A stretch of DNA of 64,000 bases from Solirubrobacteraceae bacterium (GCA_035505215.1 DATJQY010000015.1:160387-224386); one strand, 5' to 3'. Shown: positions 4,952 through 20,114, counted from the stretch's first letter. Numbers and translations are program-made. The notes: a model not told the origin generated them from the sequence alone.

Positions 4952-5587
4952 TTGATCGGAGTGGGTCCTACGATGGTGCTCGTGACGCCAGGCCGTCGCT
5001 CGGCTCCCTTGTTCGCGGTTGCGCTGAGCGCGATCGTGGCGGGATGCGGCTCCGCTCACCGACCTCCGGTGAGGCCTCACGCGGCAACCGAACGGCCCGG
5101 AGCGGTCCAGGTCCCCCAGACGATCCCGGCGCCAGCGCCGACGAGGATCCCGGCCCCGGCCGCCGCCGTGGCCGTCATCAAGGCGTGGTCTAACGCCCTG
5201 CGGCGCGGCGACATCGCCGGGGCCGCGCGGTACTTCGCGCTGCCGAGTGTGATGATCAACGGACCGGACGCGAACGGCAACGGCGTCCTCATCCGGATCG
5301 ACAGCCGGGCCAGCGCGAGAGCCGCCAACGTGACCCTCCCCTGCGGCGCCAGGTTCATCTCGGCCGATCAGCGCGGCCGCTACGTCAACGCGCTGTTTCG
5401 CCTGACCAACCGGCCCGGACCGGGAGGGGGCTGCGGCACCGGGGCGGGACAGACTGCTCGCACCAACTTCGTGATCAGCGCGGGACGGATCGTCGAGTGG
5501 ATCCGCGCCCCTGACGATCCGGGCGACAATCCCGGGACGACGCCCGCCCCGCTGCCGGGCGGACAGGGATCGGGTCCAGCCGTCTGA
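4952..5587 (+). CDS. Hypothetical lipoprotein (possible NTF2/SnoaL-like fold)
   Basis: Lipobox IVAGC, Pro-rich linker, then WSNALRRGD...AARYFALP...FVISAGRIVEW, a pattern typical of NTF2-like folds. Confidence 0.6.
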   Translation: MIGVGPTMVLVTPGRRSAPLFAVALSAIVAGCGSAHRPPVRPHAATERPGAVQVPQTIPAPAPTRIPAPAAAVAVIKAWSNALRRGDIAGAARYFALPSVMINGPDANGNGVLIRIDSRASARAANVTLPCGARFISADQRGRYVNALFRLTNRPGPGGGCGTGAGQTARTNFVISAGRIVEWIRAPDDPGDNPGTTPAPLPGGQGSGPAV

Positions 5588-5596
5588 GTCGGCCGC

Positions 5597-8446
5597 CTAG
5601 CCGCTGACCGAGACCGTCACCCCGTTTTCGCGCTGGGCATCCGGGCTGAGGTCCGCCGTTGCGTGGACGACCGAGTTGGTCTCAGGCGCCCAGCTCGGCG
5701 GGGTGACGATGAACCGCGTTCTCGCCGCCTTGGACGGCCTCAGGTTGTAGAAGGTCGCTGGCCCAAGCGCCCGGACCCTCCATCCCTCCGGCACCTGGAG
5801 CGAGAGGCGGACCACGCGGAGCGTCTCATTGCCTCCGCGCGTCAGCCGCACCGTGAACCGTGATCCACGGCCCGGGCTGACCTGCTTGGCTCCGCGGACT
5901 AGGACCTGGCGGGCGGCCGGGGTTTGCGTGATCGCAAACGAGCCGCGCAGCGGCAGGTTGGCCAGCGCCGAGGAGTCGCCGAGGTACACCTGATAGGTGC
6001 CGAGGCTCTGGGTCCATCCCTTGGCGGACTGATCCCACCACCACGTGTCCTGTGGGGTGATCGTGAAGTGGACCTCCGCCGAGCGGCCCGGCGCCAGCGC
6101 GACCTTCTGGAAGTCGACCAGCTGGCGCGGCGGCTCGCCCGCGCTGGCGGGATCGCCGAGGTAGAGCTGGGCGACGTCCGCGCCCGCCGTGGAGCCGACG
6201 TTCTTGATCGTGGCCGAGACAACGGTGTCGTAGACGCCGCCAGCCCCGGTCCGCTCGATGCGCAGATGGCTGAAGGCGAACTTCGTGTACGACAGCCCGA
6301 ACCCGAACGGGAACAGCGGCGTCAGATTCTTGGCCTCATACCAGCGGTAACCCACATCGAGGCCCTCGGAGTAGAGCACCTGCCCGTTGACCCCGGGGAA
6401 CTGGGCCGGGGTCGAGGCCGGCACCTGGGCCAGGCTGGTCGGGAAGGTCACCGGGAGGTGGCCGCTCGGATCCACCTTGCCGAACAGCACGTCGGCCAGC
6501 GAGGTGCCGTTGGACTGGCCGGGATACCAGGCGTCGACGACCGAAGCCGCCTGGCTCAGCCAGGGCATTGCGACCGGTGCCCCAGCGTCGATCACCACCA
6601 CCGTGTGCGGGTTGGCCGCCGCGACGTCGGAGATCAGCTCGTCCTGCGCGGAGGGCAGGTTGAGGCTGGGCCGGTCGGTCGCCTCGGACTCGGTGTCATC
6701 GGAGACGACGACCACCGCCTTCGCAGCCGACTTGGCCGCGCTCACCGCCGCGGCGAGCCCCGGGGCGAGGAACGACGGGGTGCCCCAGCTCAAGTTGCTC
6801 GACTCGCCCCCGCCGCTGATCGAGAGCGTGTACTTCTGGCCGGCGGTCAGGTCGATCGCGGCGGAGAAGGTACTCACGGGTGGCGTGCCGGGGTTGACGA
6901 TCAGCGGCTGCCCGTTGACCGACAGCGTGTCCGGCGTGTAGCACTGGCACTGGTTGGTGAACGCGAGCACATACGTGCCCGTCTCCGGCGCGGTCAGGGT
7001 GCCGGTGTAGCTCCCGCCGAACGGCGTCCCGCCCGCGGGATAGGCCGGTGACAGGGCCGAGGCGGGGATCGCCGGCAGGGCGGTATCGGTCGGTAGCCCC
7101 TGCGTGTAGCTGACGTGCGTCCCCGGGCCGGCGGCTGCCTGCAGCCCCTGGAGCGGGGTGACGGTCGAGGACGGGACCACGTACGCGCTACCGCCGCCGC
7201 CGTTGGTCGGCGAGGCCGAGGCGGACGGTCCGATCACGGCGACGTCCCCGGCGCTCTTGGCCGACAGGGGCAGCGTGCCGCGGAGGTTCTGGAGCAGCAC
7301 GGTCCCGCCGTCGGCCACCTGGTTGCCGAGCGTTTGATGGGCGGGCGTGGTGACCGTGGCGGTCGGGGTGGCGGGGCGCTGGAGCTTGAACAGGTTGAAG
7401 CGGAACATCTCGGTCAGCATCCGCTGGACCATCGTGTTGAGCACCGAGCGCGGGATCGCCCCGGTCTCCACGGCCGTCTGGAGCGGCGTCCCGAAGTAGG
7501 TGTTGAACGGCTGCTCCTGGTCGGTTCCGTCCTGCGCCCCGGAGGTGCTGTGGAGCGCGCCGTAGTCGGAGGTCACGAAGCCCGGGAAGTCCCACAGGTC
7601 CCTCAGGGTCGTCGTTTCCAGGTACGGGTTCTGGCAGCTGTAGTTGCCGTTGACCGTGGAGTACGCGCACATCACCGAGGAGGCGTTGGCCTTGGTCACC
7701 GCCGCGTCGAAGGCCGGCATGTAGATCTCGTGCAGCACCCGGTCGCTGACGATCACGTTGTCAGCCTCGGTATTGCGGTTGGTCTCCTGGTTATAGGCGT
7801 CGAAGTGCTTGACCTGCGACATCTCGCCCGTGCTCTGGACGCCGTCGATCTCGTCGGTGGCCAGCGCCGAGTCCAGGAACGGGTCTTCGGTGAACGCCTC
7901 AAAGGACCGGCCCCAGCGCGGGTCGCGATCGATGTTGACGGTCGGCCCCAGATTGACGTCCGCGCCCTTGCCGAGCTCCTCGGAGCCGATCACCTGGCCG
8001 TACCGGTAGGCGAGCGAGTTATCCCAGCTCGCGGCGACGTCGACCCCGGCCGGCAACTGGGTCACCCCCGTCAGCTCGTCGGCGACGCCCGCGGGTCCAT
8101 CCTCCTCGCCGAGCTTCGGAATGCACAGGCCGGCGAGGGGATTGCCTGGCGCACTGCCCGGCATCCAGAACACATACGGGTTGGGCGAGGGATTCGGACC
8201 CTCATTGGTGGTGCCGTGGCCCGCGACCAGGAAGTCCTCCTGGGCGATGCTCATCTGGCTCATCAGCTGCGCCACGCGCTGAGCAATCGGCGCGTTCGAT
8301 GTGACCCACGGACACGAGGTGTCCGCCTTCGCCCCGGGCGCCAGAACGCCCGTGAGCACAATGGCCGCTAGGGCACCAGCCAGGCGCCACCGCGCGCCAA
8401 ATCGAAGGGAGGGCCGAACCGAAGACAGAGCAGACATTCCCGCCAC
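5597..8446 (-). CDS. Secreted GH3 beta-glucosidase with PA14-like insert, Fn3-like domain and C-terminal Ig-like domain
   Basis: Signal peptide, RDPRWGRSFE, VKHF, nucleophile motif FVTSDY, WYPGQ..G..LADVLFG, FPFGFGLSYT. Confidence 0.93.
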   Translation of the reverse strand: MAGMSALSSVRPSLRFGARWRLAGALAAIVLTGVLAPGAKADTSCPWVTSNAPIAQRVAQLMSQMSIAQEDFLVAGHGTTNEGPNPSPNPYVFWMPGSAPGNPLAGLCIPKLGEEDGPAGVADELTGVTQLPAGVDVAASWDNSLAYRYGQVIGSEELGKGADVNLGPTVNIDRDPRWGRSFEAFTEDPFLDSALATDEIDGVQSTGEMSQVKHFDAYNQETNRNTEADNVIVSDRVLHEIYMPAFDAAVTKANASSVMCAYSTVNGNYSCQNPYLETTTLRDLWDFPGFVTSDYGALHSTSGAQDGTDQEQPFNTYFGTPLQTAVETGAIPRSVLNTMVQRMLTEMFRFNLFKLQRPATPTATVTTPAHQTLGNQVADGGTVLLQNLRGTLPLSAKSAGDVAVIGPSASASPTNGGGGSAYVVPSSTVTPLQGLQAAAGPGTHVSYTQGLPTDTALPAIPASALSPAYPAGGTPFGGSYTGTLTAPETGTYVLAFTNQCQCYTPDTLSVNGQPLIVNPGTPPVSTFSAAIDLTAGQKYTLSISGGGESSNLSWGTPSFLAPGLAAAVSAAKSAAKAVVVVSDDTESEATDRPSLNLPSAQDELISDVAAANPHTVVVIDAGAPVAMPWLSQAASVVDAWYPGQSNGTSLADVLFGKVDPSGHLPVTFPTSLAQVPASTPAQFPGVNGQVLYSEGLDVGYRWYEAKNLTPLFPFGFGLSYTKFAFSHLRIERTGAGGVYDTVVSATIKNVGSTAGADVAQLYLGDPASAGEPPRQLVDFQKVALAPGRSAEVHFTITPQDTWWWDQSAKGWTQSLGTYQVYLGDSSALANLPLRGSFAITQTPAARQVLVRGAKQVSPGRGSRFTVRLTRGGNETLRVVRLSLQVPEGWRVRALGPATFYNLRPSKAARTRFIVTPPSWAPETNSVVHATADLSPDAQRENGVTVSVSG

Positions 8447-8519
8447 CTCGCGTGAGACGTGTAAGCCCGGCCTAAGTTCAGACGGTTCCCCCGCGCCGAG
8501 CGGCGTAAACCGAATCCCG

Positions 8520-9776
8520 CTAGCTGGCCACGGCCGCCGGGATCACGTCGGTGCGCTCCCGTGCGGAGGCGCGCCGCGCCTGAGGCCGTCGCCTAAGGTG
8601 CATCGCGGTAGCCACCGCGAGCCCGAGCGGGACCTGCACCCAGAAGCTGATGATCCGATAGACCAGCACCGCGGTCACGGCCGTGGTCGCGTGCATGCCG
8701 TAGGCGACGAGCAGGACCGAGAGCGTCCCCTCCACGACGCCCACCCCGCCTGGGGTGATGGGAAGGTTTTCCGCGACCTGGCCGACGGCGTAGACAGCCA
8801 GGAGCGCCGACCAGGGAACATGGCCGCCCGCCGCCAGGATCGCCGCCGCCAGACAGGCGCAGTCCGTGATCCAGTTACCGAGCGCGGCACCGGCCGCTGG
8901 GAGGAGCGCACGGGGTCCCGGTGCCCAGCGTGGCCAGTGCACGCGCCGGCTGAACACTGCCAGCCCCCCCAGCACCACCACCGCGGCGGCGATCAGCGCC
9001 ACCGCGACCCGGAACGGCGCGGCCGGCCCGTGGTCGCCGGCGAGCTCGACACCGATTGCCAGAAGCAGGACGAGCACGGCCGAGACAACCACCAGCATCG
9101 AGACCAGCACACGGACGGCTGTGCCCCGACCGACACCGCGTCGGCGCAGTTGATCGAAAGAGAAGGTCGCCGCCAGGGCCTGCCCTGCCGGAATCGACAC
9201 CGACAGCGCGTTGCTGGCGAGGCTCAGCGCGATCATCGAACGCAGCGTCAACCTCGCTCCGCGAGCGCGTAGCAGCACCCAGCCAAGCGACGCGAAGGAG
9301 ATCGTTGAAAGCGCCTCGGCATAGACCGCCAACCTCACGTAGCGCCAATGCAGATGGGCGAGCTGGCCGATGGCGTCGGTCACGGTGTCCCATTGGCCCG
9401 AGATCGAGACGAAGGCGACCACGATCAGGATCGGAGCGAGAAGCCACTGGGCCCGGAGGAGCCACTTGCGATGGCTGGTTCTGGGGCGCTCCCGTTCGTC
9501 CTCCCGCCAGGGCACGGCGACAGGGTCGGATCGTCCCCCTTTGCGCAGCTGCCAGACGGCCAGGAGCGGGAAGATCACCGCGGCGGCGATCTCCACCCCC
9601 AAGCGGATCCACGATCGCCCCGCGACCCCGGTTGATGCGAGGCGAAAGCCGGTGACGGCCAGGTTCGCCGCGGCCACAAACGCAAGCGTGCACAGGGCCG
9701 CCGTCGACCACCGCATCGTCCCCACTTCGCCGCTGGCCTGGTCCGCCTCCATGGCGACATCCCACCAAAGCAGCAC
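8520..9776 (-). CDS. Lysylphosphatidylglycerol synthase TM-domain (YbhN/UPF0104, flippase-like) membrane protein
   Basis: Multi-pass membrane protein with LPITPGGVGVVEG and AVLVYRIISFW, hallmarks of LPG_synthase_TM. Confidence 0.85.
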   Translation of the reverse strand: MLLWWDVAMEADQASGEVGTMRWSTAALCTLAFVAAANLAVTGFRLASTGVAGRSWIRLGVEIAAAVIFPLLAVWQLRKGGRSDPVAVPWREDERERPRTSHRKWLLRAQWLLAPILIVVAFVSISGQWDTVTDAIGQLAHLHWRYVRLAVYAEALSTISFASLGWVLLRARGARLTLRSMIALSLASNALSVSIPAGQALAATFSFDQLRRRGVGRGTAVRVLVSMLVVVSAVLVLLLAIGVELAGDHGPAAPFRVAVALIAAAVVVLGGLAVFSRRVHWPRWAPGPRALLPAAGAALGNWITDCACLAAAILAAGGHVPWSALLAVYAVGQVAENLPITPGGVGVVEGTLSVLLVAYGMHATTAVTAVLVYRIISFWVQVPLGLAVATAMHLRRRPQARRASARERTDVIPAAVAS

Positions 9777-9828
9777 GAGCTACCTCTAACGGTCCGCGAA
9801 GAACACCTGAAGGAGCATTACGTCGGAT

Positions 9829-12084
9829 TTACGGCAGTGAGTTGATGACGCCCTCCGCGCTCCCCACCACGGTCAGGCCAGCGGCGACCAGCGGTGCCCC
9901 CGTGTCCTCCAGGCACTCGGCGTCGAGCGCAGGGGAGTCCGAGCCGGTCGCCGGCGCCGGCCCAACCCGTCGGCCGGTCGTAAGTCTCCGCCGGAGGGCG
10001 AAGTGGAGATGAATCGGCAACGAGCGCGAAGAGTCACCCACATACACCTGGTAGGTCCCCTTGGCCGCCGTCCAGACCCCGTTCCAGAAGGAGAGCTGGC
10101 GCGGGGTCAGCGTGAAGGTGACCCGGGTCTTGTGGCGGGCGCGGACGGTGACCCGTTTGAAGGCCTCGAGCTGGCGCGGCGGCTCGCCGGCGGCGGCGGG
10201 ATCTCCCACGTAGAGCTGCACCACGTCCGATCCCGCACGCCGGCCGACATTGCGGACGAGGACGCTGACCGTGACCCGGCCCTTCTTGGTCGGGCGCGAG
10301 AGGTGGGCCTTGCTGAAGCGGAACGACGTGTACGAGAGCCCGAACCCGAACGGGAAGAGCGGCGTCTCCTTGTTCTCGTCGAAGTAGCGGTAGCCGACGA
10401 AGATGCCCTCGTTGAACTTCTGCTCCCCCACCCCTGGCCAGTCGGTCGGAGAGCCGGCCGGCTCCTGGGAGAGCGAGACCGGGAAGGTGACCGGGAGCTT
10501 GCCCCCCGGATCGACGTCGCCGAACAGGACCGCCGCGATCGCGGTGCCGTCGCCCTGGCCGGGATACCAGGCCTCGAGCACGCCGGCCACGCTGCTCAGC
10601 CACGGCATCGTCACCGCACTGCCGGTGTTGAGGACCACGATCGTGTGCGGGTTCGCGGCCGCGACGTCCTCGATCAGCGTGTTCTCCTGCGCGGGCAGAT
10701 CGATGCTCGGAAGATCCTCTCCCTCGCTCTCCTGAAGGTCGACGAACACGATCGCGACCGAGGCGGACTTGGCCGCCGATGCGGCCGAGCTGGGGTCAGA
10801 GCCGTCGTTGTAGACGACGCTAGCTCCGTGGGCCCGGGCGACGATGCCCTGGTAGGGCGTCACGACCGACGGGGCGACGACGCTCGCGCTACCCCCGCCG
10901 CCGGTGTAGGCGCCAGAGCCGGCGTCGGCGCCGATCACCGCGATCGAGTGCGTGGTGGCCGGCTTCAGCGGCAGCAGTGAGCCCGCGTTCTTGAGCAGGA
11001 CGGTCGAATCCTCGGCCACCTTCACCGCGGTGGCGGCGTGGGCCGGCGTTGTCACCACGTCGCCCGGCGCGCCGGTGACCGGGTGGCTGAAAACGTGGAA
11101 GCGGAACATCTCGGTGAGGATCCGGGAGACCATGCCGTTGAGCGTCGCCTGGGAGACGGCGCCGTCCTGGAGCCCTTCCTGCAGCCCGGTCGTGTAGTAG
11201 CAGCCGTCGGGCATCTGCATGTCGAGGCCCGCGTCCGCCGAGGGGGCGGCGCTCTTGGTGGCAAACCAGTCCGAGGTGACGAAGCCGGTGAAGCCGAACT
11301 CGCTATCCAGTACCTGGGCGAGCAGATAACCGTCCTGACACGCCGGCACCCCGTTCACCTCGTTGTAGGAGCACATCGCCGACGCCACGTGCGCCTGCTG
11401 GATCGCGTCCTGAAACGGCGGCAGGTAGATCTCCTGGAGCGCTCGCTCGGAGACAATCGAGTTAGAGGCCGGGCTGTCGCGCGCCGTCTCCTCCGCGTAG
11501 GCCGCGAGGTGCTTGACCTGCGCCATCACGCCCTGGCCCTGGACGCCGTCGATGTAGCCGTCGCCGATCGCGCCCTGCAACAGCGGATCCTCGCCGTAGG
11601 TCTCAAACGCCCGGCCCCAGCGCGGGTCGCGGACGATGTTGACGGTCGGGCCGAGGTCGACGTTCGCGCCCTTGCCGCGCTGCTCGGCGCCCACCACTGC
11701 CCCGTACTGCGCGGCCAGCTTCGGATCCCACGTGGCCGCCAGCGCGACGGGGGCCGGGAGCTGCGTGACCCCGGTCATGCTGTCGCCCGATCCGGCCGGG
11801 CCATCCTCGAGGTTGAGCGCGGGGACGCACAGGGACGGGATCGGCGTCGTCTGGCCGGCGTAGACGGGTCCCATCTCCGCCACCGGGCCGCTGGTCAGGC
11901 CCGAGAGCAGGTCGAGCTTGTCCGACTGCGACATCTGGGCCAGCAACTGCTTCACGCGGGCCGCGATCGGGGCCTTCGAGGTCACCCAGGGGCAGCCGGC
12001 GGCGTTGGCGGCCGCGGGCACAAGTGCGGCTGCGGCTAAGAGCGCCGCCAGCCCCGCTATGCCGACGAGCAGCTTCCCGCGCAT
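9829..12084 (-). CDS. Secreted GH3 beta-glucosidase (paralogue without PA14-like insert)
   Basis: Start reassigned to MRGKLLVG (12084, signal peptide). RDPRWGRAFE, FVTSDW, WYPGQ, FPFGFGLSYT. Confidence 0.93.
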   Translation of the reverse strand: MRGKLLVGIAGLAALLAAAALVPAAANAAGCPWVTSKAPIAARVKQLLAQMSQSDKLDLLSGLTSGPVAEMGPVYAGQTTPIPSLCVPALNLEDGPAGSGDSMTGVTQLPAPVALAATWDPKLAAQYGAVVGAEQRGKGANVDLGPTVNIVRDPRWGRAFETYGEDPLLQGAIGDGYIDGVQGQGVMAQVKHLAAYAEETARDSPASNSIVSERALQEIYLPPFQDAIQQAHVASAMCSYNEVNGVPACQDGYLLAQVLDSEFGFTGFVTSDWFATKSAAPSADAGLDMQMPDGCYYTTGLQEGLQDGAVSQATLNGMVSRILTEMFRFHVFSHPVTGAPGDVVTTPAHAATAVKVAEDSTVLLKNAGSLLPLKPATTHSIAVIGADAGSGAYTGGGGSASVVAPSVVTPYQGIVARAHGASVVYNDGSDPSSAASAAKSASVAIVFVDLQESEGEDLPSIDLPAQENTLIEDVAAANPHTIVVLNTGSAVTMPWLSSVAGVLEAWYPGQGDGTAIAAVLFGDVDPGGKLPVTFPVSLSQEPAGSPTDWPGVGEQKFNEGIFVGYRYFDENKETPLFPFGFGLSYTSFRFSKAHLSRPTKKGRVTVSVLVRNVGRRAGSDVVQLYVGDPAAAGEPPRQLEAFKRVTVRARHKTRVTFTLTPRQLSFWNGVWTAAKGTYQVYVGDSSRSLPIHLHFALRRRLTTGRRVGPAPATGSDSPALDAECLEDTGAPLVAAGLTVVGSAEGVINSLP

Positions 12085-12149
12085 CCCTGGATCACCGGGC
12101 GAAGATCTTATGGAGTCACCCCGGCGCCCGCTCCAGCACCACCCGGTTC

Positions 12150-13055
12150 CTAACTGCCCCCGCGCTCTTGGGCGAGGGCATCCAGCGCCCGCGCCAGCCA
12201 GGTCGGCGCCTCCTGCTCCCACAGGGTCACGCTGTGACCGCCGGGATACTCGGCGAAGACGTGACGGATGTGCTGCTTGCGCAAGGCCCCGTTGAAGGCG
12301 AGGTTGTCCGAGGCAAAGCGGGTGTCCTGGTTACCGACGTAGAAGCCGATGAACGCCGGGTCGCGGGCCAGCGACCGGGCGAGGACCGCGCCCCGGGGGG
12401 CGCGAGCGGCCGCGTTGGCCGCCGCGGAGCCGAGGTTGAGGATGTGCAGGCCGCTCGGGTCCGTGGCCTCGAAGTAGCCGCTCCAGGACTCGATGGCCCC
12501 GAAGGTGTCGAGATGGCGCAGACCGATGTTCATAGCGCCAAAACCGCCGGCCGAGAAGCCGATCAGCGCTCGGCCTGAGCGCTTGGCGATGGTGAGGAAG
12601 TGCGTGTCGATGCATCGGGTCAGGTCGCGGGAAAACGCCTGGGGCCAGTTCTCGGTGGGCCCAACGTCGAGGTACTCCGGGTCGCTGTTCTCCGTGCGCG
12701 CTCCCTGGGGGGCGACGACGATCGCCGGGCGCGATCCGCTGGCCACGACGTTGGCCACGAAGCCGCTCTCGGTATACGTCTGCGGTCCGGCGGGAAGTCC
12801 GTGCAGGAGATAGATGACCGGGAAGCGCTGCGTGGTCTCTCCGTATCCCGCGGGGAGGTAGACGAGCGCCGGCAGCTTTCCCCCCAGCGAGGGTGAGGAA
12901 CAGGTCATCGACACCGTGCTCGGAGCCGCCGACGCGTGGGCGACGGGTCGCGGCGAGACCGCACGCCGGCGATGCCCGCGCCGCACCAGAGCGGCGTGCG
13001 CAATCGAGACACCCAGGATCAACAGGAGCGCAAACGAAACAGCGGGGGCACGCAC
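12150..13055 (-). CDS. Secreted alpha/beta-hydrolase (putative esterase, Ag85/Fes-like family)
   Basis: YLPAGY...FPVIYLLHG, nucleophile GFSAGG, C-terminal PGGH. N-terminal signal peptide. Confidence 0.85.
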   Translation of the reverse strand: MRAPAVSFALLLILGVSIAHAALVRRGHRRRAVSPRPVAHASAAPSTVSMTCSSPSLGGKLPALVYLPAGYGETTQRFPVIYLLHGLPAGPQTYTESGFVANVVASGSRPAIVVAPQGARTENSDPEYLDVGPTENWPQAFSRDLTRCIDTHFLTIAKRSGRALIGFSAGGFGAMNIGLRHLDTFGAIESWSGYFEATDPSGLHILNLGSAAANAAARAPRGAVLARSLARDPAFIGFYVGNQDTRFASDNLAFNGALRKQHIRHVFAEYPGGHSVTLWEQEAPTWLARALDALAQERGGS

Positions 13056-13081
13056 CCTCGCTCACGGTAGCGGCGAGCCGG

Positions 13082-15532
13082 TCAAGGTCGTGTAAGCAGC
13101 TCACCATCCTGCAAGCGCGCGTGCAGGCCGCCGAACGGCGGCCGAACCGCGCGCTGGGCTATCCGCAGCCAACCATGCACCATCCCCGGCAGCGCGGCCC
13201 CGGCGGCCAAGAGCACGCCCTCGAACCACGCGCCGGAACCCGGGACCCGGTCGGCGAGCACGGCGCTCAGCCGGAGGTTCCGCGCCAGGGCAAATGACGC
13301 CTCGGAGGCGAACAGCACCAGCAACAGCCCGAACCCAGCCACGACCACCACGCGGGCCGACGGCCGGACGCGGATCAGGACCAGCCCCAAGACGACTCCG
13401 GCGAGCAGCCAGGCGGCCGCCACCCGGGCCAGCGGCTGGCCGTCAAACCCCGCCAGCTGGAGCAGCGGGAGGGCGTCGCCGAGCCGCGGGCCGGCGGCCA
13501 GCCAGCCCAGGCCGCGCAGGCCGTAGAGCAGGCCGGTCCCGGTCAGGACGGCAAAGATCACCGCGAAGCCGACCCCAACGCTCGCCACCACCCCGCGGAG
13601 CAGCGCCGCCAGCGATCCCCAGCCACCGCGGAAGGCCCGCCGCCAGTCCACCGAGGCGCCCGACTCCGCCCCGGCCAGAACCGGCACGCACGCGAGCACG
13701 ATCGCGATCGCGAGCAGATGGAGGCCGGTGATGAGCGGGCGTGAGCCGAGCGACTCGCCGAACGCAGCCAGCCCGAACACGAGCGCAGTGAGAGTGGCGA
13801 GGCCCGTCATCAGCGAGATGGAGCTGATCGCGTTTGACCGGCGCAGCGCCGCCTGGAAGGCGAGGAAACCGACGAACGTCATCCCGGCGGCGACCAGAGT
13901 CCAGCCGGTGAAGAGACTCGACGTGCCGTGCGCGCGTACGCCCAGCGATACGGCTTTGATGGCCGCGTCGGCCACGCCGTAGAAGAGTCCGGCCGCGATC
14001 GCCTTCCCCGCTCCTCCGTGGTTGTAGATGACCGCTCCGCCCGCCACCGCCGCCGCGCTCGCCCAGACGAGCGCCGCGGTCGCGATCCCGCCGCCCGGCC
14101 GTGGCACGCCGATGGGGAGCAGGGCCAGGCTGGCCGCCATGGCCACGACCGCGATCACCTGAAGCCGGGGCACCCGGTAGCCGAAGATCCCTGCCCCGAG
14201 CGGAACCGAGAGGGCCAGCCCCCCGGCCGCGAAGGCCTGAACGAGCGACAGGGGAGCCAGGGCCACCGCGACGATCTGGACCAGGAAGCCGAGCCACCCG
14301 AGCCCCTGCCCGGCCAGCCAGGTGCGGCTGCGCAGCGCCCCGAGCCACGCCCGCAGGCCGTCGCCGCTGCCTCGCACGAGGCCCCGCTGCTGGAGCATGA
14401 AGCCGAGGTTGATGAGTGCTGCCGAGCCGATGGCGAGCAGCAGCCCGAGCCACGCCGAAGCCGGCAGTCCGCCGCCCCGCGGCGCCAACCCCGCGCGCGC
14501 GCCAGGCCGACCCGCGTCGAAGCGGCGCGCCGGCGCCGGGAGCGCGTGCCGCTCCGGCCCCGAGCCGGCCAGCCGGGTAGCGGCAGCAAGTCTGGAGACG
14601 GATGGCGGCAGCGGGTGGCTCACCATCCTCGAGGCCCGCAGCATCATCGAATCGACCTGGTCGTACCAGACCTCCCAGTCGTGACCCCCGGGGAACAGGT
14701 TGTAGGTGGCGATGGCTCCGCTGCGCCGCAGGGCGCGGGCCATGGCGCCGATCCTGCGGCCGTCGGGGTCGTGGCGCCCGGTGAACATGTACACCCGCAG
14801 CGGATAGCGCTCCAGCGCCCGGCGCAGCCGCGTAGTCTGCGCGTACTCCAGCGGGCTGTTATAGGCCAGCGCCGCGCCGCTCGCGTCACGGAAGACAGCG
14901 CTGAACTTCCGCGTCTGGATGTAGTACCCGGACCAGGACTGGACGTTCTCAAACACCTCCGGGTGATGGAGCGCGATGTTCAGGGCGCCGTAGGCGCCGG
15001 CGGAATAGCCCGCGATTACGCGAGCGCTGCGAGACGGGATGGCCGAGAAGCGGGTGTCGACGTCGCGGACGACGTTGAGCACGTAGCTTTCGAAATGTCC
15101 CGCCGGCGTGTTGGCCCACTCGGAATCCGAGAACGAGCTGCTGATGCGGCCGTCGGGCATCACGAGCAGCATCGGGCGCAGCTGGTGCTCGCTGATCCGG
15201 TTGGCCAGCCGCACGTCGAGGCCGACAACGCTGATGAAGTCCCTGGGGCTTCCCGGCGCGCCGTGGAGCAGGTAGTAGACCGGATAGCGCTGAGCCCGGC
15301 TGTAGCCGCCCGGGAGGTAGACGAGGTAGTCGGCCATCCGGTGGAGCGCCCGGGAGTAGAAATGCACCGTCTCCAGACGTCCGGGGCGCGCATGTGGGAA
15401 CCGCTTGACCGGCGCGAACCCCCGGTGCACCCAATACGCCTGACCGTAGCTGTAGGTCCCGATCAGCCCGGCGGCAACCGTGCCCGCGATCACGAGGATC
15501 GCCAGCAGGCGCCAGAAAATTCGGCGGCGCAT
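13082..15532 (-). CDS. Fusion: exported esterase domain + DMT/NIPA-like membrane domain + additional membrane domain
   Basis: Start reassigned to MRRRIFW (15532). YPVYYLLHG, GYSAGA and PGGHDW, then a linker, a DMT-like region (ALAPLSLVQ) and further hydrophobic helices in one frame. Confidence 0.75.
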   Translation of the reverse strand: MRRRIFWRLLAILVIAGTVAAGLIGTYSYGQAYWVHRGFAPVKRFPHARPGRLETVHFYSRALHRMADYLVYLPGGYSRAQRYPVYYLLHGAPGSPRDFISVVGLDVRLANRISEHQLRPMLLVMPDGRISSSFSDSEWANTPAGHFESYVLNVVRDVDTRFSAIPSRSARVIAGYSAGAYGALNIALHHPEVFENVQSWSGYYIQTRKFSAVFRDASGAALAYNSPLEYAQTTRLRRALERYPLRVYMFTGRHDPDGRRIGAMARALRRSGAIATYNLFPGGHDWEVWYDQVDSMMLRASRMVSHPLPPSVSRLAAATRLAGSGPERHALPAPARRFDAGRPGARAGLAPRGGGLPASAWLGLLLAIGSAALINLGFMLQQRGLVRGSGDGLRAWLGALRSRTWLAGQGLGWLGFLVQIVAVALAPLSLVQAFAAGGLALSVPLGAGIFGYRVPRLQVIAVVAMAASLALLPIGVPRPGGGIATAALVWASAAAVAGGAVIYNHGGAGKAIAAGLFYGVADAAIKAVSLGVRAHGTSSLFTGWTLVAAGMTFVGFLAFQAALRRSNAISSISLMTGLATLTALVFGLAAFGESLGSRPLITGLHLLAIAIVLACVPVLAGAESGASVDWRRAFRGGWGSLAALLRGVVASVGVGFAVIFAVLTGTGLLYGLRGLGWLAAGPRLGDALPLLQLAGFDGQPLARVAAAWLLAGVVLGLVLIRVRPSARVVVVAGFGLLLVLFASEASFALARNLRLSAVLADRVPGSGAWFEGVLLAAGAALPGMVHGWLRIAQRAVRPPFGGLHARLQDGELLTRP

Positions 15533-15537
15533 CCGGG

Positions 15538-16848
15538 TCACCGCCCGGAGACGTAGGCCCGGACCGAGGAGGGCACGGGCTCGGAGCGCGGCGCGCTGAC
15601 CGGCGGCACTGGCCGCCTCGAGTCCCAGCGCCGCCCCAGATAGCCCTCGGCCTGGAGCACGCGATAAATGGTTCTCGGGAGGGCACGGCGCGATGGATAG
15701 ACGAGGTAGCGGGGGCGCCACTGGGGGGCGAACTTGTCGTTGAAGCGGATGAGGCGCTCCATCTGAAAGCGCCGGCCCAGAACGGCAGTCGCGATCCCGA
15801 TCGCGCCTCGGCGCAGCCAACCTCCCGACGCTCTGCCGCGAATCACGTGCGCCAGCCCGGCGTAGTTGAGGCTGACCTCGCTGACGCCGCGCTCACGCGC
15901 CACCTCGATGGCGCGGCACACGAGCGCCTCGTTGAGCCCGTTGGGGTTCTCCCCCACCCGGCGCATCGTGGCCAGCGACAGCTTGCCGCGGTGCGCGACG
16001 AAGTGCATCGCCGCGGTCAGGGCTCCCTCGGGCGAGCGCGCAAGCAGGTAGAGGTCGCGGGGGCGGATCCCCGCCTCGTACGGCCCCATGCTCATGGCGA
16101 AGCCGAGCAGGCGCGGCCGCTGAGCGCGCCAGCGGGTCTCGAGCGCCTCGATCTCGGCCTCGGTCACCAGGTCGATGTCGATCCCGTCGAAGGCGACGAT
16201 TTGCCAGCCGCGACGCTCTACGCGGTGGACCGACTGGCGCAGCTTGCGCACCGGCCGCCCGTCGAGGCTGAAGTTCTCCGGGCGGACCACCGCTTCCTCG
16301 CCGACGCACATCGAGCGCAGGCCGAGCCGGTGGTAGGTCTGGAGCTGAGCCTCTGACGCGCCGTAGACGGCGACGTCCCAGCCATGAGCGCGGGCCGTGT
16401 CGAGGAACCTCGCCGCGACCGCCGGAGCCGCCCCGGCCGGCGCGACCGGATCACCCGAGACGACCGCCGTGCGACCGAAGACCCGGTAGCTGATGACACC
16501 GCCGGCGGCGAAGGCATAGGCCTTGTCGGGCCTCACGATGAAGGGCGAGATCGAGTCCTCCCCGTAGCGGTCGACAAGGTGCCGGGCGGCGGCGAGCTCG
16601 TCGTGGGAATCGTGCCGCCTGGCTGCGCCAGCGAGCGAAGCCGAGGCGCGCCGCCGGCTCAGCGCCAACGCGGTTAGGCCACCGAGCGCGAGCGCGTCAG
16701 CGCCCAGGCCGAGGGCCAACAGGACGTCGCCGGACCCGCCCGGCAATAGCGAGGCCAGGAGCGACCACGCCGCCAGCGCCAGACAGCCGATCAGGACGAT
16801 TGATCGCGCGCGCCGTTTCCGGAGGGCGATGAGAAGGAAGCGTGACAC
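15538..16848 (-). CDS. Phosphatidylglycerol lysyltransferase-domain protein (DUF2156, MprF C-terminal-like)
   Basis: Two N-terminal TM helices, then VVSGDPV, GEEAVV..FSLDGR..RKLRQ, MRR..PNGL.E.L and F..KF.P.W.PRYLVY. Confidence 0.88.
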   Translation of the reverse strand: MSRFLLIALRKRRARSIVLIGCLALAAWSLLASLLPGGSGDVLLALGLGADALALGGLTALALSRRRASASLAGAARRHDSHDELAAARHLVDRYGEDSISPFIVRPDKAYAFAAGGVISYRVFGRTAVVSGDPVAPAGAAPAVAARFLDTARAHGWDVAVYGASEAQLQTYHRLGLRSMCVGEEAVVRPENFSLDGRPVRKLRQSVHRVERRGWQIVAFDGIDIDLVTEAEIEALETRWRAQRPRLLGFAMSMGPYEAGIRPRDLYLLARSPEGALTAAMHFVAHRGKLSLATMRRVGENPNGLNEALVCRAIEVARERGVSEVSLNYAGLAHVIRGRASGGWLRRGAIGIATAVLGRRFQMERLIRFNDKFAPQWRPRYLVYPSRRALPRTIYRVLQAEGYLGRRWDSRRPVPPVSAPRSEPVPSSVRAYVSGR

Positions 16849-16872
16849 CCCAGGGAAAATCTCGCTCGCATG

Positions 16873-16911
16873 CCTGAGGCCGGGCCGGGAGAAGCCTGAG
16901 AATTTCCTGAG
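16873..16911 (-). promoter_or_regulatory. Probable OmpR/PhoP-family direct-repeat site upstream of the DUF2156 gene
   Basis: CCTGAG at 16873, 16895 and 16906 (22- and 11-bp spacing). A near-identical 17-mer lies upstream of the response regulator at 19182-19198. Confidence 0.6.
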
Positions 16912-16923
16912 TCCGCGGGGCGG

Positions 16924-18462
16924 CTAGCGACGCCCGGCCGTCTCGGCCGAGGCCGATGTGCCGCGGTCGGCCGCGTCGGGCGCGGGGGCCCCAGGCGGAG
17001 CGGCCGGGAGCCTCACCGTGAAGAGCGCGCCGCCGGTGGGGCGATTGGCCGCCTGCACGGTGCCGTCGTGGGCCTCGACGATCGCGTGCACGATCGAGAG
17101 GCCGAGGCCCGATCCACCGTCGTCGCGGGTCCTCCCCGCCTCGGCACGCCAGAAGCGCTCAAACACCTGCTCCTCGGCGTCCACGGGCAGCCCGAGTCCG
17201 TGATCGCGCACCTCGAGCACGGCCTGCGGACCCTCACGGGAGACGGAAACCTCGACCGGGGTGTCCGGGGGCGTGTGGGTGACGGCGTTGCTCAAGAGGT
17301 TGTTCAGGACCTGACGCAGGCCGTCCGGGTCGCCGAGCACCTCGACGGCATCGGCGCTGGTCAGCGAGATCGGGCGCCCGGGCGCCGCGGCGCGGGCATC
17401 GGCGACGGCCCCGACGACGAGTTCGCCCATGTCGACTGGCACCCGGCGAGATTTCGGGAGTTCGTCCAGCCGCGCCAGGGCCAGCAGGTCTTCGACGAGC
17501 ACGCCCATCCGGGCGGCCTCGGACTCGATCCGCGACATGGCCCGCTCAAGGAGCTCGGGATTGCGCGCCGGACCCAATCGGAACAGCTCCGCGTAGCCCC
17601 GGATCGAGGCCAGCGGAGTCCGCAGCTCATGCGAGGCGTCGAGCAGGAATTGGCGCTGGCGCTCTTCGCTGCGCGCCCGCCCGGCGAACGCGTCCTCGAT
17701 CCGCACGAGCATCCGGTTGAGCGACAGACCCAGACGACCGATCTCGGTGCGGGTCGTCGACGGGGTGACCCGCCGCGATAGGTCTCCTTCGCTGATCTCG
17801 TTGGCCACTCGGCTCATCGCGTCCAGCGGGCGGAGAGCGAGGCGGATGACCACCCACCCGAGCCCGGTCAGCGCGATCAGAACAGCCGCCACGACGATCA
17901 CCTCGACGAGGACCAGGCGGTCGAGCGCCTCATCGGTGTCCCGGAGGGGAATCGCCACCGCGACCGCGCCGGCTCCCGAGTCGAGCGGCACGACGGCGAC
18001 GCGGAAGCGGATCTTGGACTTGGGTATCGAGGCGACGGTGTAGAGCTTGGGCGTCCCGGACGACTGGGCCGCCTGCAGGACACGAGCGGGAATCGCCGGC
18101 CGCACCCGGGTGCGCGTGTCGTAGCTCGTGAGGATCGGACCCCGGAGGACGTTCCCGGTCGGGCCGACGAACTCCCCGAAGGCGCCCGAGGGGACGAATC
18201 CGACCAGGCCCTTGCGGTACTGGGACGAGACGGCGTGCACGTCGCGCGTCAGGTGACGGACCTTCGGGCTGACGGTCAGGAGCCGAGCGTCGAGGCCCAG
18301 GGCGTAGGTCATCGGCGCCGCCGCCGCCTCGACGCTCTGATCGGCGCGGCCGTAGAGGTAGGAACGCTGCTCGTAGTAGATGGCAAAGGCCGAGAGCACG
18401 AGCGCAGTGGCGATGAGCAGCAGGATGCTCATGAGCAGCCGGGTCCTCAGCGACATGGTCAT
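16924..18462 (-). CDS. HAMP-domain sensor histidine kinase
   Basis: Two TM helices, HAMP, H-box ASHELRTPL, N-box NLLSNA, G boxes DHGLG and GSGLGL. ATGA overlap with the response regulator. Confidence 0.95.
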   Translation of the reverse strand: MTMSLRTRLLMSILLLIATALVLSAFAIYYEQRSYLYGRADQSVEAAAAPMTYALGLDARLLTVSPKVRHLTRDVHAVSSQYRKGLVGFVPSGAFGEFVGPTGNVLRGPILTSYDTRTRVRPAIPARVLQAAQSSGTPKLYTVASIPKSKIRFRVAVVPLDSGAGAVAVAIPLRDTDEALDRLVLVEVIVVAAVLIALTGLGWVVIRLALRPLDAMSRVANEISEGDLSRRVTPSTTRTEIGRLGLSLNRMLVRIEDAFAGRARSEERQRQFLLDASHELRTPLASIRGYAELFRLGPARNPELLERAMSRIESEAARMGVLVEDLLALARLDELPKSRRVPVDMGELVVGAVADARAAAPGRPISLTSADAVEVLGDPDGLRQVLNNLLSNAVTHTPPDTPVEVSVSREGPQAVLEVRDHGLGLPVDAEEQVFERFWRAEAGRTRDDGGSGLGLSIVHAIVEAHDGTVQAANRPTGGALFTVRLPAAPPGAPAPDAADRGTSASAETAGRR

Positions 18463-19160
18463 GTCCTTGGCAGCCGCAACGAGTAACCCACCCCGCGAAT
18501 TGTGTGAAGCAGTGGCGGCCCGTCGGCGTCGATCTTCTTGCGCAGGTAGCTCACGTACGTCTCCAGCACGCGGGCGTCACCGGCGAAGTCGTAGCTCCAC
18601 ACCCGTTCCAGAAGCTGCTGCCGGGTGAGGACGCGCCGCGGGTTGGTCATGAAGTAGTGCAGCAGTCGGAACTCGGTCGCCGTGAGCTCGATCGGCCGCC
18701 CCGCCCGTGAGACCTCACGTGTCTCCTCGTCGAGTTCGAGATCCTCGAAGGTCAGCCGGCCGCTGAACTCCGCGCCGGCGCCGTTGCGACGGACCACGTT
18801 GCGCAGCCGCGCCATCAGCTCCTCGAGGCTGAAGGGCTTGGTGACGTAGTCGCCACCCCCCGCGGTGAGACCCCACACCTTGTCGGTCGTGGCGTCACGC
18901 GCGGTCAGGAACAGGATCGGCACGTCAACCCGCTCGGCGGCGAGCCGCCTCGCCACCTCAAAGCCGTCGATGTCGGGGAGCATGACGTCGAGGACGAGGA
19001 CGTTCGGATGCCAATCGCGCACGCTGGCCAGCGCCCCCGCGCCGCTGTCGGCCTGCGCGACCTCGAAGCCGTTGTGACGCAGCGCCATCGACACGAAGTC
19101 GACGATGTTCGGTTCGTCGTCGACCACCAGCACGCGCACCGGACCATCAGTGTCGCTCAC
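18459..19160 (-). CDS. OmpR/PhoP-family response regulator
   Basis: VLVVDDE, LDVMLP (phospho-Asp), FLTARD, KPFS and a winged-helix C-terminus (TIRGVGY). Confidence 0.96.
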   Translation of the reverse strand: MSDTDGPVRVLVVDDEPNIVDFVSMALRHNGFEVAQADSGAGALASVRDWHPNVLVLDVMLPDIDGFEVARRLAAERVDVPILFLTARDATTDKVWGLTAGGGDYVTKPFSLEELMARLRNVVRRNGAGAEFSGRLTFEDLELDEETREVSRAGRPIELTATEFRLLHYFMTNPRRVLTRQQLLERVWSYDFAGDARVLETYVSYLRKKIDADGPPLLHTIRGVGYSLRLPRT

Positions 19161-19181
19161 ATGATCATTATCGAGCCCGAA

Positions 19182-19198
19182 TCTGAGGATTTCCTGTG
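19182..19198 (-). promoter_or_regulatory. Probable autoregulatory direct-repeat site upstream of the response regulator
   Basis: TCTGAG-GATTT-CCTGTG versus CCTGAG-AATTT-CCTGAG at 16895-16911. It sits just upstream of a GATAAT -10 element (minus strand) located 6 nt before the GTG start. Confidence 0.55.
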
Positions 19199-19211
19199 GA
19201 TCTGGGGTGCC

Positions 19212-20114
19212 CTAGAGGGTGGTGCGACAGGAGGCAGATCCGACCTTCACCTGCACGGGCTCGCCGGAGACCGAGCGTGGGGCTTTGAAGTAGACGTCGG
19301 CGTAGCCGGAGCTGTCGGTGCGCCAGATCGCCGAGCGCCCCGAGCTGTCGCTGACCGTCACCGTCTGGCTGGGCTGGTTGGAGTGGACGTAGACGTCGAA
19401 GTCGCCGTAGGCGCTCGAGTACGAGGCGGTGGCCGAGCAGTGAGCGGCGGATGACGAGGCCGTGGTCGGTGCCGGCGCGCGGGCGGCGAGCGCCACCCAG
19501 TTGGCGGCGATCGCGCGTTGCGCGTCGGCGAGCGTCATCTGCCCGTCGCACACCTTCTGGTTGAGCTCGTCCTCGACCGCGTCCTTGGGGTTCGGCGACG
19601 CGCCCGGCTCGGGCCATAGGTTCCTGGGGTCGTTGACCGCGCCGCCCAGCTCGAGCGGGACGAGGTGGTCGTACTCGTAGCCGCTCATGGGGCCACCATC
19701 GCCGTAAGCGGCCAAGCTCCGCGCCTTCTCGGTCTCGGTGACCTGTTCAGGCGGGCGGACGGTCGAGGTCCAGCCTTTCACGCAAATCGTCTGGTGGATG
19801 TTGGCCTGGGTGATCGCCGGATCGAGCGCGCCCGGGGTGCAGTGCGGATCGGGGCGGGAGTAGGGGCCGGTGCCCATCGCGTGGCAGGCGCCGGGCGGAG
19901 GCTGGGCCTGGACGCGTTGGGCGGATGCGGTCGAGTAGGCGAGGCCGTTCGTGGCCGTCCGCTGGCGTTCTGAGCGGCCGTGGGGCGCGTCGGTTGACGG
20001 CGCCTGTGCCGTGGTCGCAGGTGCGGTGCCGGCGGTGCTGCTTGGCGCGGCCTGGCCGCAGCCCGCCAGCGTGAGCGCGGCAAGCGCGATGAGCAGCGTG
20101 CGACGGCTTGTCAC
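19212..20114 (-). CDS. Lipoprotein with HNH-like (His-Me finger) motif and C-terminal beta-rich domain
   Basis: Start reassigned to GTG 20114 (lipobox LAGC). YEYDHLVPLELGG...RNLWP. Confidence 0.7.
   Translation of the reverse strand: MTSRRTLLIALAALTLAGCGQAAPSSTAGTAPATTAQAPSTDAPHGRSERQRTATNGLAYSTASAQRVQAQPPPGACHAMGTGPYSRPDPHCTPGALDPAITQANIHQTICVKGWTSTVRPPEQVTETEKARSLAAYGDGGPMSGYEYDHLVPLELGGAVNDPRNLWPEPGASPNPKDAVEDELNQKVCDGQMTLADAQRAIAANWVALAARAPAPTTASSSAAHCSATASYSSAYGDFDVYVHSNQPSQTVTVSDSSGRSAIWRTDSSGYADVYFKAPRSVSGEPVQVKVGSASCRTTL

Follow-up and report, generated by a model that had tools for sequence, protein, structure and literature searches.

The window analysed here is a stretch of 64,000 nucleotides (C15:160387-224386, ~70% G+C) from the genome of a Solirubrobacteraceae bacterium (3.76 Mb, 34 contigs). 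Within the window, eight co-oriented genes on the minus strand (5597-19160) encode a response regulator (RR), a sensor histidine kinase (HK), a DUF2156 transferase, a protein that unites an esterase with a large membrane region (EstTM), a second esterase (Est2) and, further downstream, two secreted family-3 glycosidases (GH3b and GH3a) that enclose a PF03706 membrane protein. An initial annotation of this DNA had listed the eight genes with their domains, all of which were recovered with Pfam and NCBIfam, and had joined them into one split MprF-like system. Comparison of gene neighbourhoods indicates instead that the cluster is a conserved five-gene unit with three strain-specific neighbours, because linkage across loci is kept for five genes alone. 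The functional unit, which appears to be specific to Solirubrobacterales, would consist of the RR-HK pair and the operon DUF2156-EstTM-Est2 (12150-19198), and its likely task is to make, move and trim membrane lipids decorated with amino acids. We assign a probability of roughly 0.6 to this unit and the full make-move-trim mechanism taken together.

Conservation of the five-gene unit in Solirubrobacterales

An alignment of EstTM was searched against 185,579 species genomes, and the best 80 of 123 relatives were used as a sample of loci. All 80 loci lie in metagenome-assembled genomes (MAGs) labelled Solirubrobacterales, Solirubrobacteraceae or uncultured Actinomycetota/Actinomycetes. The EstTM family comprises 321 homologues, and the named ones fall without exception into the same groups. 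A DUF2156 orthologue (53-68% identity) was found immediately upstream of EstTM and on the same strand in 75 of the 80 loci, each from a different species. In four further loci DUF2156 lies within the locus and is separated from EstTM by an extra esterase or a two-component system, and the remaining locus ends at a contig boundary. A PF00756 esterase adjoins DUF2156 in 79/80 loci. Orthologues of Est2 (at least 50% identity) are present in 42 loci and orthologous RR and HK genes in 18; the RR orthologues next to the module, in these 18 loci and in L162, are 69-91% identical to the window protein. A GH3 gene occurs at a single locus, as does PF03706, the latter as a weak 47-bit match at the locus edge. 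The closest relative has exactly the order RR-HK-DUF2156-EstTM-Est2, with identities of 91% (RR), 81% (HK), 73% (DUF2156, residues 1-436), 77% (EstTM) and 80% (Est2). Indeed, in contexts with precomputed Pfam annotation the DUF2156-EstTM pair recurs amid wholly different flanks. The carriers are mostly Danish soil MAGs with 'MFD' labels, and the window's organism is accordingly taken to be an uncultured Solirubrobacteraceae of soil.

Within the genus, DUF2156 of the window type (56-66% identity) is present in 11 of 36 other genomes. Wherever these loci have downstream sequence, EstTM and further esterases come after DUF2156, and some loci have RR-HK alongside. The membrane part of EstTM has strong orthologues at these loci in 10 of the 11 genomes, and the contig of the eleventh ends inside EstTM. 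When the 11 loci were searched with the eight window proteins, neither GH3a, GH3b nor the PF03706 protein was found, and no other window gene was syntenic. The initial annotation had proposed such a comparison of DUF2156 neighbourhoods. Its outcome confirms the co-location of RR-HK, DUF2156, EstTM and Est2, and not that of the GH3 and PF03706 genes. The idea of a functional unit of DUF2156 and two esterases under two-component control thus stands, given the linkage at 75/80 loci directly and 79/80 within the locus, and given the shared operator-like box described below.

Further support for a common function is provided by rearranged loci. The C-terminal module of EstTM, which has four transmembrane (TM) helices, is fused in 34 of the 80 loci, encoded separately on the opposite strand in 36 and separately on the same strand in 5; the other 5 loci gave no match. 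A sister genus (L155) has separate, co-directional genes for, in this order, an esterase, the 4-TM protein, DUF2156 (409 aa), a free-standing protein of 306 aa related to the DMT/NIPA-like domain of EstTM, RR and HK. L154, from a different family of the class, combines two DUF2156 paralogues with esterases and a separate DMT-like gene. As these rearrangements leave the same four parts together, they are strong evidence, by gene context, that the esterase, 4-TM, DUF2156 and DMT-like parts work together. Where the 4-TM gene is separate and inverted (~150-230 aa; e.g. L045-L048), its place is between EstTM and Est2. A programmed inversion of this module was considered and rejected, as the flanks contain just short imperfect GC-rich inverted matches; the two orientations look like an old rearrangement.

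Two variations of the locus were noted. G015 carries two copies of the module, in one of which (G015:C13:370690-371858; L051:5871-6856) DUF2156 appears as two overlapping matches with an in-frame TGA, possibly a pseudogene or an assembly error. In one species (L056/L057:1004-5319), an NRPS-like protein with AMP-binding and PP-binding domains (1267 aa) and a phosphopantetheinyl transferase are encoded just upstream of Est2-DUF2156-EstTM.

The two-component genes share an operator-like element with the DUF2156 operon. An OmpR-type direct-repeat box, CTCAGGnnnTTCTCAG, with an 11-bp period precedes both the RR and the DUF2156 gene, and a third CTCAGG lies 22 nt downstream of the box in the HK-DUF2156 gap. 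A position weight matrix was built from the box sites of the window and of orthologous loci. Across the 3.76-Mb genome, its best two sites were those of the window, scoring 31.9 (HK-DUF2156 gap) and 25.1 (RR), and the next site reached 16.6; the scan returned no site ahead of the GH3 or PF03706 genes. Among the loci with a two-component system, the box is found at both places in eight and at one place in eight more. Orthologous loci with the RR-upstream box include L061, L063, L067, L100, L103, L106 and L112, and the HK-DUF2156 box is kept in L061, L063, L067, L073, L082, L100, L102, L103, L106, L112 and L119. The proteins themselves correspond to an OmpR/PhoB two-component system, with a receiver and a winged-helix domain in the regulator and HisKA/HATPase domains in the kinase, and the box CTCAGGnnnnnCTCAG stands ahead of both the RR and the DUF2156 gene. 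The kinase has two TM helices around an extracytoplasmic loop of ~150 aa, followed by HAMP, HisKA and HATPase_c, and its gene overlaps the RR gene by 4 bp. These features support the view that RR-HK is a dedicated, autoregulated switch for the DUF2156 operon, with the regulator as the presumed ligand of the boxes.

The association was also examined in a sample of the phylum. PF09924, the DUF2156/LPG_synthase_C family, was detected in 82/401 Actinomycetota genomes, and 20 contexts were fetched. A PF00756-like esterase lies nearby in 6/20, and a DMT-like part in 3/20, all of them Thermoleophilia. Two loci of another family ('f22', G234, G145), L144:3465-7254 and L145, contain a tight operon of a PF00756 esterase, a 583-aa protein with TM helices and LPG_synthase_C, and a separate 348-aa PF03706 protein. 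From its gene content this operon is apparently a true split MprF with a PesT-like esterase, that is, the arrangement that the initial annotation had imagined for the window. The best matches of its esterase in the window genome are EstTM (6e-43) and Est2 (7e-33), the next paralogue following at 4e-8. Because these matches are specific, the DUF2156-associated esterases would form one subfamily.

Predicted functions of the DUF2156, EstTM and Est2 proteins

The DUF2156 protein matches PF09924 over profile positions 2-298 of 298 (E=6.8e-56). Its best NCBIfam models are LysX (5e-60) and MprF (2e-41), both under their equivalog cut-offs. In the PDB it aligns with L-PGS (4v36; E=3.6e-25, residues 94-399), and its PDB matches range from 1e-20 to 1e-25. 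The N-terminal anchor consists of two hydrophobic helices (residues 17-35 and 42-60). The description of this protein as having 'only 2 TM' is right for the window copy and does not extend to its orthologues, which carry three to six N-terminal TM helices. Pfam detected no PF03706 domain in it. With an LPG_synthase_C domain and a membrane anchor, the protein has the features of a predicted aminoacyl-phosphatidylglycerol synthase of the MprF type.

Two genes of the genome encode DUF2156 proteins and nine encode PF03706 proteins; all nine are without a fused DUF2156 domain. The second DUF2156 paralogue (G000:C12:64434-65477; L052:12432-14153, minus strand) encodes 573 aa with a TM region of ~230 aa and is 38% identical to the window copy; its type (37-41% identity) is present in most genomes of the genus. 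No esterase, DMT-like or PF03706 gene adjoins this paralogue, which sits between MFS transporters and ATP synthase genes, and a hydrolase or flippase partner for it was rejected on account of these neighbours.

In an alignment of 63 EstTM homologues, G175, S177 and G179 of the GYSAG motif, D255 and H284 (GGHDW) are invariant, and S177, D255 and H284 form the putative catalytic triad. An AlphaFold2 model built from this alignment reached a mean pLDDT of 79. Foldseek matched it to CE1 feruloyl and acetyl-xylan esterases and to esterase D (E~5e-10, TM-score ~0.76); the full-length search returned esterase matches alone and none for the membrane domains. The model thus predicts an alpha/beta-hydrolase fold with the GxSxG nucleophile and Asp/His triad of PF00756/CE1-like enzymes. 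EstTM begins with MRRR and a hydrophobic helix, a signal anchor, and the N-termini of Est2 orthologues (MHRRR or MKRRR, then a hydrophobic stretch) are typical of export signals. Longer EstTM variants were observed as well. Those of ~1200 aa (P0070, P0074, P0077, P0079, P0086 and others; L053:8001-11609) end in a PF00144 beta-lactamase/DD-peptidase-like domain, and those of ~1120-1170 aa in a second PF00756 esterase. In 4/4 long variants examined, an extra hydrophobic helix and an Ala/Pro-rich linker precede the added domain.

For the nine-TM domain of EstTM, a place in the DMT superfamily is suggested by profile matches. The NCBIfam DMT_1 model NF038012 matches 17/17 EstTM members (best E=1.2e-11, profile positions 2-272 of 276), none of them above its cut-off, the window protein scoring 22 bits against the 50 required; Pfam NIPA matches 12/17 (best 7e-7). 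A Foldseek search of the PDB with a model of the TM part alone (AlphaFold2, pLDDT 75.6) gave a best E of 0.07, TM-scores of at most 0.2 and no DMT protein among the top 50, with a method that is weak for divergent all-helical membrane proteins. In view of the missing fold match, membership of the DMT superfamily is proposed from sequence alone. Free-standing paralogues of ~290 aa, with nine hydrophobic helices and 28-40% identity to this domain, are common in the order. Two of them are encoded in the window genome (G000:C6:133921-134847 and G000:C33:116307-117185), one without a Pfam match and the other with a weak match to TMEM234. The 4-TM module matched no Pfam family and contains a strongly conserved loop, GPxxxDxLPLLQLAGxDxQPL. 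In a set of 1.84 billion proteins its family amounts to 195 clusters, in which most proteins are free-standing and 150-210 aa long.

A topology can be suggested from the distribution of charges. In the loops of the DMT-like domain 13 Arg/Lys residues lie opposite the esterase side and 3 on the esterase side (counted manually with the AlphaFold2 helix boundaries). The chain would then run from the anchor, in to out, through an esterase outside the cell and nine helices, out to in, into the 4-TM module, which would start and end inside and expose its conserved loop outside. If the 816-aa form ends in the cytoplasm, the extra helix of the long variants would place the added domain on the esterase side.

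Gene layout and the GH3 and PF03706 neighbours

The spacing between the eight genes ranges from -4 to 75 nt (Table 1). Two starts were revised. The EstTM open reading frame, listed as 13082-15820, likely starts at the ATG at 15532, 5 nt past the DUF2156 stop. GH3b, listed as 9829-12222, probably begins at the ATG at 12084; this start yields a signal peptide, and alignments with relatives begin at residues 5-26 of this version. A scan of positions 5000-20000 detected neither a sigma-70-like promoter nor a T-rich terminator, which is weakly informative at 70% G+C, and no intergenic folding exceeded shuffled controls; operon boundaries can therefore not be set from these data. Of the outer flanks, one encodes a PQQ-repeat protein and a ferritin and the opposite one an ABC-2 permease along with unknown proteins.

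Table 1. Positions of genes, EstTM domains and operator-like repeats, counted from the first letter of the window
Feature	Position	Strand	Remarks
Operator-like repeat CACAGGAAATCCTCAG	19183-19198	-	22 nt upstream of RR start
Response regulator, OmpR/PhoB family, 233 aa	18459-19160	-	Pfam Response_reg + Trans_reg_C
Sensor histidine kinase, 512 aa	16924-18462	-	HAMP + HisKA + HATPase_c
Operator-like repeat CTCAGGAAATTCTCAG	16896-16911	-	in the 75-nt HK-DUF2156 gap
DUF2156/LPG_synthase_C transferase, 436 aa	15538-16848	-	PF09924, full length
EstTM fusion, 816 aa	13082-15532	-	PF00756 esterase + large membrane region
EstTM signal anchor, residues 1-36	15425-15532	-	N-terminal hydrophobic stretch
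EstTM esterase domain, residues ~50-305	14618-15385	-	PF00756 (CE1/esterase-D-like), E=2.5e-19
EstTM DMT/NIPA-like 9-TM domain, residues ~356-625	13658-14467	-	NF038012, Pfam NIPA
EstTM 4-TM module, residues ~630-816	13085-13645	-	conserved loop, no Pfam family
Est2, second PF00756 esterase, 301 aa	12150-13055	-	Pfam E=7.7e-22; N-terminal signal/anchor
GH3b, secreted family-3 glycosidase	9829-12084	-	GH3 domains, signal peptide
PF03706 (LPG_synthase_TM; YbhN/UPF0104, 'flippase-like') stand-alone membrane protein	8520-9776	-	E=1.6e-23
GH3a, secreted family-3 glycosidase	5597-8446	-	GH3 N + C, PA14 insert, Fn3-like, NEW3, signal peptide

The three genes downstream of Est2 differ from the unit in their distribution. 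The PF03706 gene had been taken for the separated flippase of an MprF. It is one of nine PF03706 (YbhN/UPF0104) genes in the genome, and no orthologue was found in 40 relatives at E<=1e-30. Its closest homologues (49-67% identity, among 5.8 billion proteins) adjoin genes for transcription regulators, MlaD-like proteins, ABC transporters or VTT-domain proteins, and never stand beside DUF2156, esterase or GH3 genes. A role as split flippase partner was rejected on account of these unrelated contexts, the lack of an orthologue in the relatives and the absence of PF03706 from 79 of the 80 loci.

Much the same was seen for the two glycosidases, which had likewise been counted as part of the system. 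GH3a and GH3b have GH3 N, GH3 C and Fn3-like domains, reach no equivalog cut-off and are paralogues of each other (49-53% identical). Homologues elsewhere in the genus are at most 53% identical, and those of three relatives examined (G005, G007 and G018) are either on contigs other than that of the DUF2156 module or 143 kb away from it. The GH3 genes were rejected as system members on these distant positions and on the presence at 1/80 loci. Since the GH3 and PF03706 genes were wrongly included, the suggestion of a glycolipid or surface-glycan acceptor falls with them; it found no support. GH3-PF03706-GH3 are strain-specific neighbours that are, at most, read through. Co-oriented GH3 and PF03706 genes should consequently not be annotated as members of the system, which corrects an over-extended operon call.

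Proposed mechanism, alternatives and known systems

Several aminoacyl-lipid systems have been described. In Corynebacterium glutamicum, the actinobacterial MprF homologue AlaDAGS makes alanyl-diacylglycerol (Ala-DAG) and is encoded in the same operon as PesT, a 'putative esterase' that has been proposed to act either as an Ala-DAG-to-phosphatidylglycerol (PG) transferase or as a hydrolase (Smith et al. 2015, Mol Microbiol 98:681, as summarised in PMC6103681 and PMC10580965). When PesT is present, the products of this type of system include Ala-PG. AlaDAGS has six TM helices, and the related LysX makes lysyl-DAG (PMC10580965). AhyD and VirJ are aminoacyl-PG hydrolases with genes beside the synthase gene (PMC6103681). 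ErdS-ErdH is a fungal pair, and the bacterial aminoacyl-lipid hydrolases bear secretion signals (PMC7334510). How aminoacyl-lipids are flipped across the membrane and what PesT-type esterases do are named as open questions in a review (PMC6103681).

In the mechanism proposed for the five-gene unit, the kinase would detect an envelope signal and the OmpR-type regulator would activate its own operon and the DUF2156 operon. The anchored DUF2156 enzyme would transfer an amino acid from aminoacyl-tRNA to diacylglycerol or PG at the cytoplasmic face, as AlaDAGS, LysX and MprF do. Because the DUF2156 protein has no MprF flippase domain, translocation is assigned to the membrane domains of EstTM, so that the DMT/NIPA-like domain and the 4-TM module would carry the aminoacyl-lipid to the outer leaflet. 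There, the aminoacyl ester would be acted on by the EstTM esterase domain and by Est2, joined in some species by another esterase or a PF00144 domain. These enzymes may either hydrolyse it, for homeostasis (cf. AhyD, VirJ/AcvB, ErdH), or hand the amino acid over to another acceptor (cf. PesT). The make-and-remove logic with two esterases, put forward in the initial annotation, holds up in this scheme.

The L144/L145 family has a PF03706 partner and the Solirubrobacterales have the DMT-like/4-TM pair, which leads us to propose a non-orthologous displacement of the flippase. The DMT/NIPA-like domain and the 4-TM module with its 'LPLLQL-loop' would then be an unrecognised translocase that has displaced PF03706 and been fused to an exported esterase, coupling flipping with trimming or handing-on under two-component control. 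We put this forward as a tentative extension, rather doubtful in itself. If true, aminoacyl-lipid translocators would include a second class unrelated to the first, and both the small orphan 4-TM family and the under-annotated DMT/NIPA-like family would gain a function. Abundant uncultured soil Thermoleophilia would, moreover, remodel their membrane charge under two-component control. The lineage thereby offers a testable gene-fusion answer to both questions raised in the review, that of flipping and that of the PesT-type role (PMC6103681).

Several observations weigh against the five-gene unit and its mechanism. Every genome that carries the module is a MAG. An adjacent two-component system is present in just 18 of the 80 loci, so regulation varies between species. 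Co-transcription of the GH3 genes is possible in this strain, with gaps of 52-73 nt and no terminator detected. The stretch that connects the esterase with the first TM helix is Arg-rich, which, taken alone, would argue for a cytoplasmic location. Finally, the DMT assignment depends on sub-threshold sequence matches, the TM-only Foldseek search has no PDB match to offer, and NIPA, the nearest Pfam family, is annotated as a Mg2+ transporter. This last point also favours the alternative that the DMT/NIPA-like domain transports a small solute (an ion, amino acid or metabolite), or that the DUF2156 product is not a membrane lipid. Members of the DMT superfamily are mostly small-molecule transporters, and the free-standing DMT/NIPA-like paralogues are unlinked to DUF2156. 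However, the DMT-like domain stays linked to DUF2156 through fusion, fission and rearrangement, a PF03706 gene is the membrane partner of DUF2156 in the L144/L145 operon, and the DUF2156 protein is itself membrane-anchored. The DUF2156 enzymes treated in the literature cited here (PMC6103681, PMC7334510, PMC10580965) all act on a membrane lipid, and we regard this alternative, in either form, as improbable.

What the exported esterases do with the aminoacyl ester is a separate matter. They might be transacylases, the aminoacyl-lipid serving as a carrier from which the amino acid reaches another acceptor beyond the membrane (PG, or a polymer of the wall or surface), in the manner of PesT, of mycolyl transfer by other PF00756 enzymes or of D-alanylation by Dlt. 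The antigen-85 mycolyltransferases belong to PF00756. The presence at each locus of two to three exported domains of acyl-enzyme hydrolases, PF00144 fusions included, suggests more than simple turnover, the fusion of an esterase to a putative translocator suggests channelling, and Ala-DAG-to-PG transfer is one of the two roles proposed for PesT (PMC6103681). Against this, the closest structures are hydrolytic CE1/esterase-D enzymes and antigen 85 is not among the top 50; the conserved unit encodes no acceptor candidate; and the other characterised partners of aminoacyl-PG synthases (AhyD, VirJ and ErdH) are all hydrolases (PMC6103681, PMC7334510). Transacylation as the main task of these enzymes therefore seems to us unlikely. 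Far harder to maintain is a system of all eight genes, in which a split MprF aminoacylates a glycolipid or glycan and the esterases and GH3 enzymes remove the product. It is favoured by the co-orientation, by gaps of at most 75 nt without a detected terminator, by the identity of PF03706 with the flippase domain of MprF and by the existence of a true esterase/DUF2156/PF03706 split in L144 and L145. The locus counts for GH3 and PF03706 (1/80 each), the PF03706 gene as one of nine paralogues, with unrelated homologue contexts and no orthologue at E<=1e-30 in 40 relatives, the remote GH3 homologues in G005, G007 and G018, and the operator box missing ahead of these genes leave it very little credibility.

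With MprF (Staphylococcus aureus; Rhizobium tropici LpiA; PDB 6lvf, 7duw), the unit shares a homologous PF09924 catalytic domain, and in both cases the product must reach the outer leaflet. Unlike in bifunctional MprF, PF03706 is neither fused nor conserved next door; the membrane parts conserved with the transferase are instead the DMT/NIPA-like domain and the 4-TM module. ArnE/ArnF, of the SMR/DMT superfamily, form the undecaprenyl-phosphate-aminoarabinose flippase and are a precedent for translocation of a cationic lipid head group across the cytoplasmic membrane. Here the lipid is different and no sequence relationship is claimed; the comparison is an analogy alone. RakPGS-AhyD of Enterococcus, A-PGS-PA0919/VirJ and LpiA-AcvB of proteobacteria and ErdS-ErdH of fungi resemble the unit in that a transferase gene lies beside a Ser-hydrolase gene, and the hydrolases of the bacterial pairs are exported (PMC6103681, PMC7334510). 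The window hydrolases differ from these in being PF00756/CE1-like, in some species with PF00144 in addition, in the placement of one hydrolase inside a 14-TM protein and in the number of two or three hydrolase domains per locus. As in GraRS/ApsRS, which controls mprF and dltABCD in Staphylococcus aureus (PMC6103681), an envelope-sensing two-component system would drive lipid aminoacylation; the window system differs in that it adjoins its target and has no other strong operator in the genome.

The closest counterpart is AlaDAGS-PesT. Both combine a short-anchor actinobacterial MprF homologue, without the long flippase domain, and a 'putative esterase' (PesT by description) in the same operon. 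The differences are that the esterase of EstTM is continuous with two membrane parts, the 9-TM DMT/NIPA-like domain and the 4-TM module, that the window adds a second exported esterase and has the transferase gene first, that the DUF2156 anchor has two TM helices and AlaDAGS six, and that part of the lineage has a dedicated two-component system, together with a conserved operator. A search of the available literature returned no paper linking MprF/DUF2156 with Thermoleophilia. The initial annotation had regarded the gene combination as new; an operon of DUF2156 and an esterase is already described as AlaDAGS-PesT, and it is the esterase-transporter fusion that appears undescribed. Judged by its gene content, the window unit is a lineage-specific variant of the AlaDAGS-PesT type, with the esterase built into a predicted 14-TM transporter-like protein.

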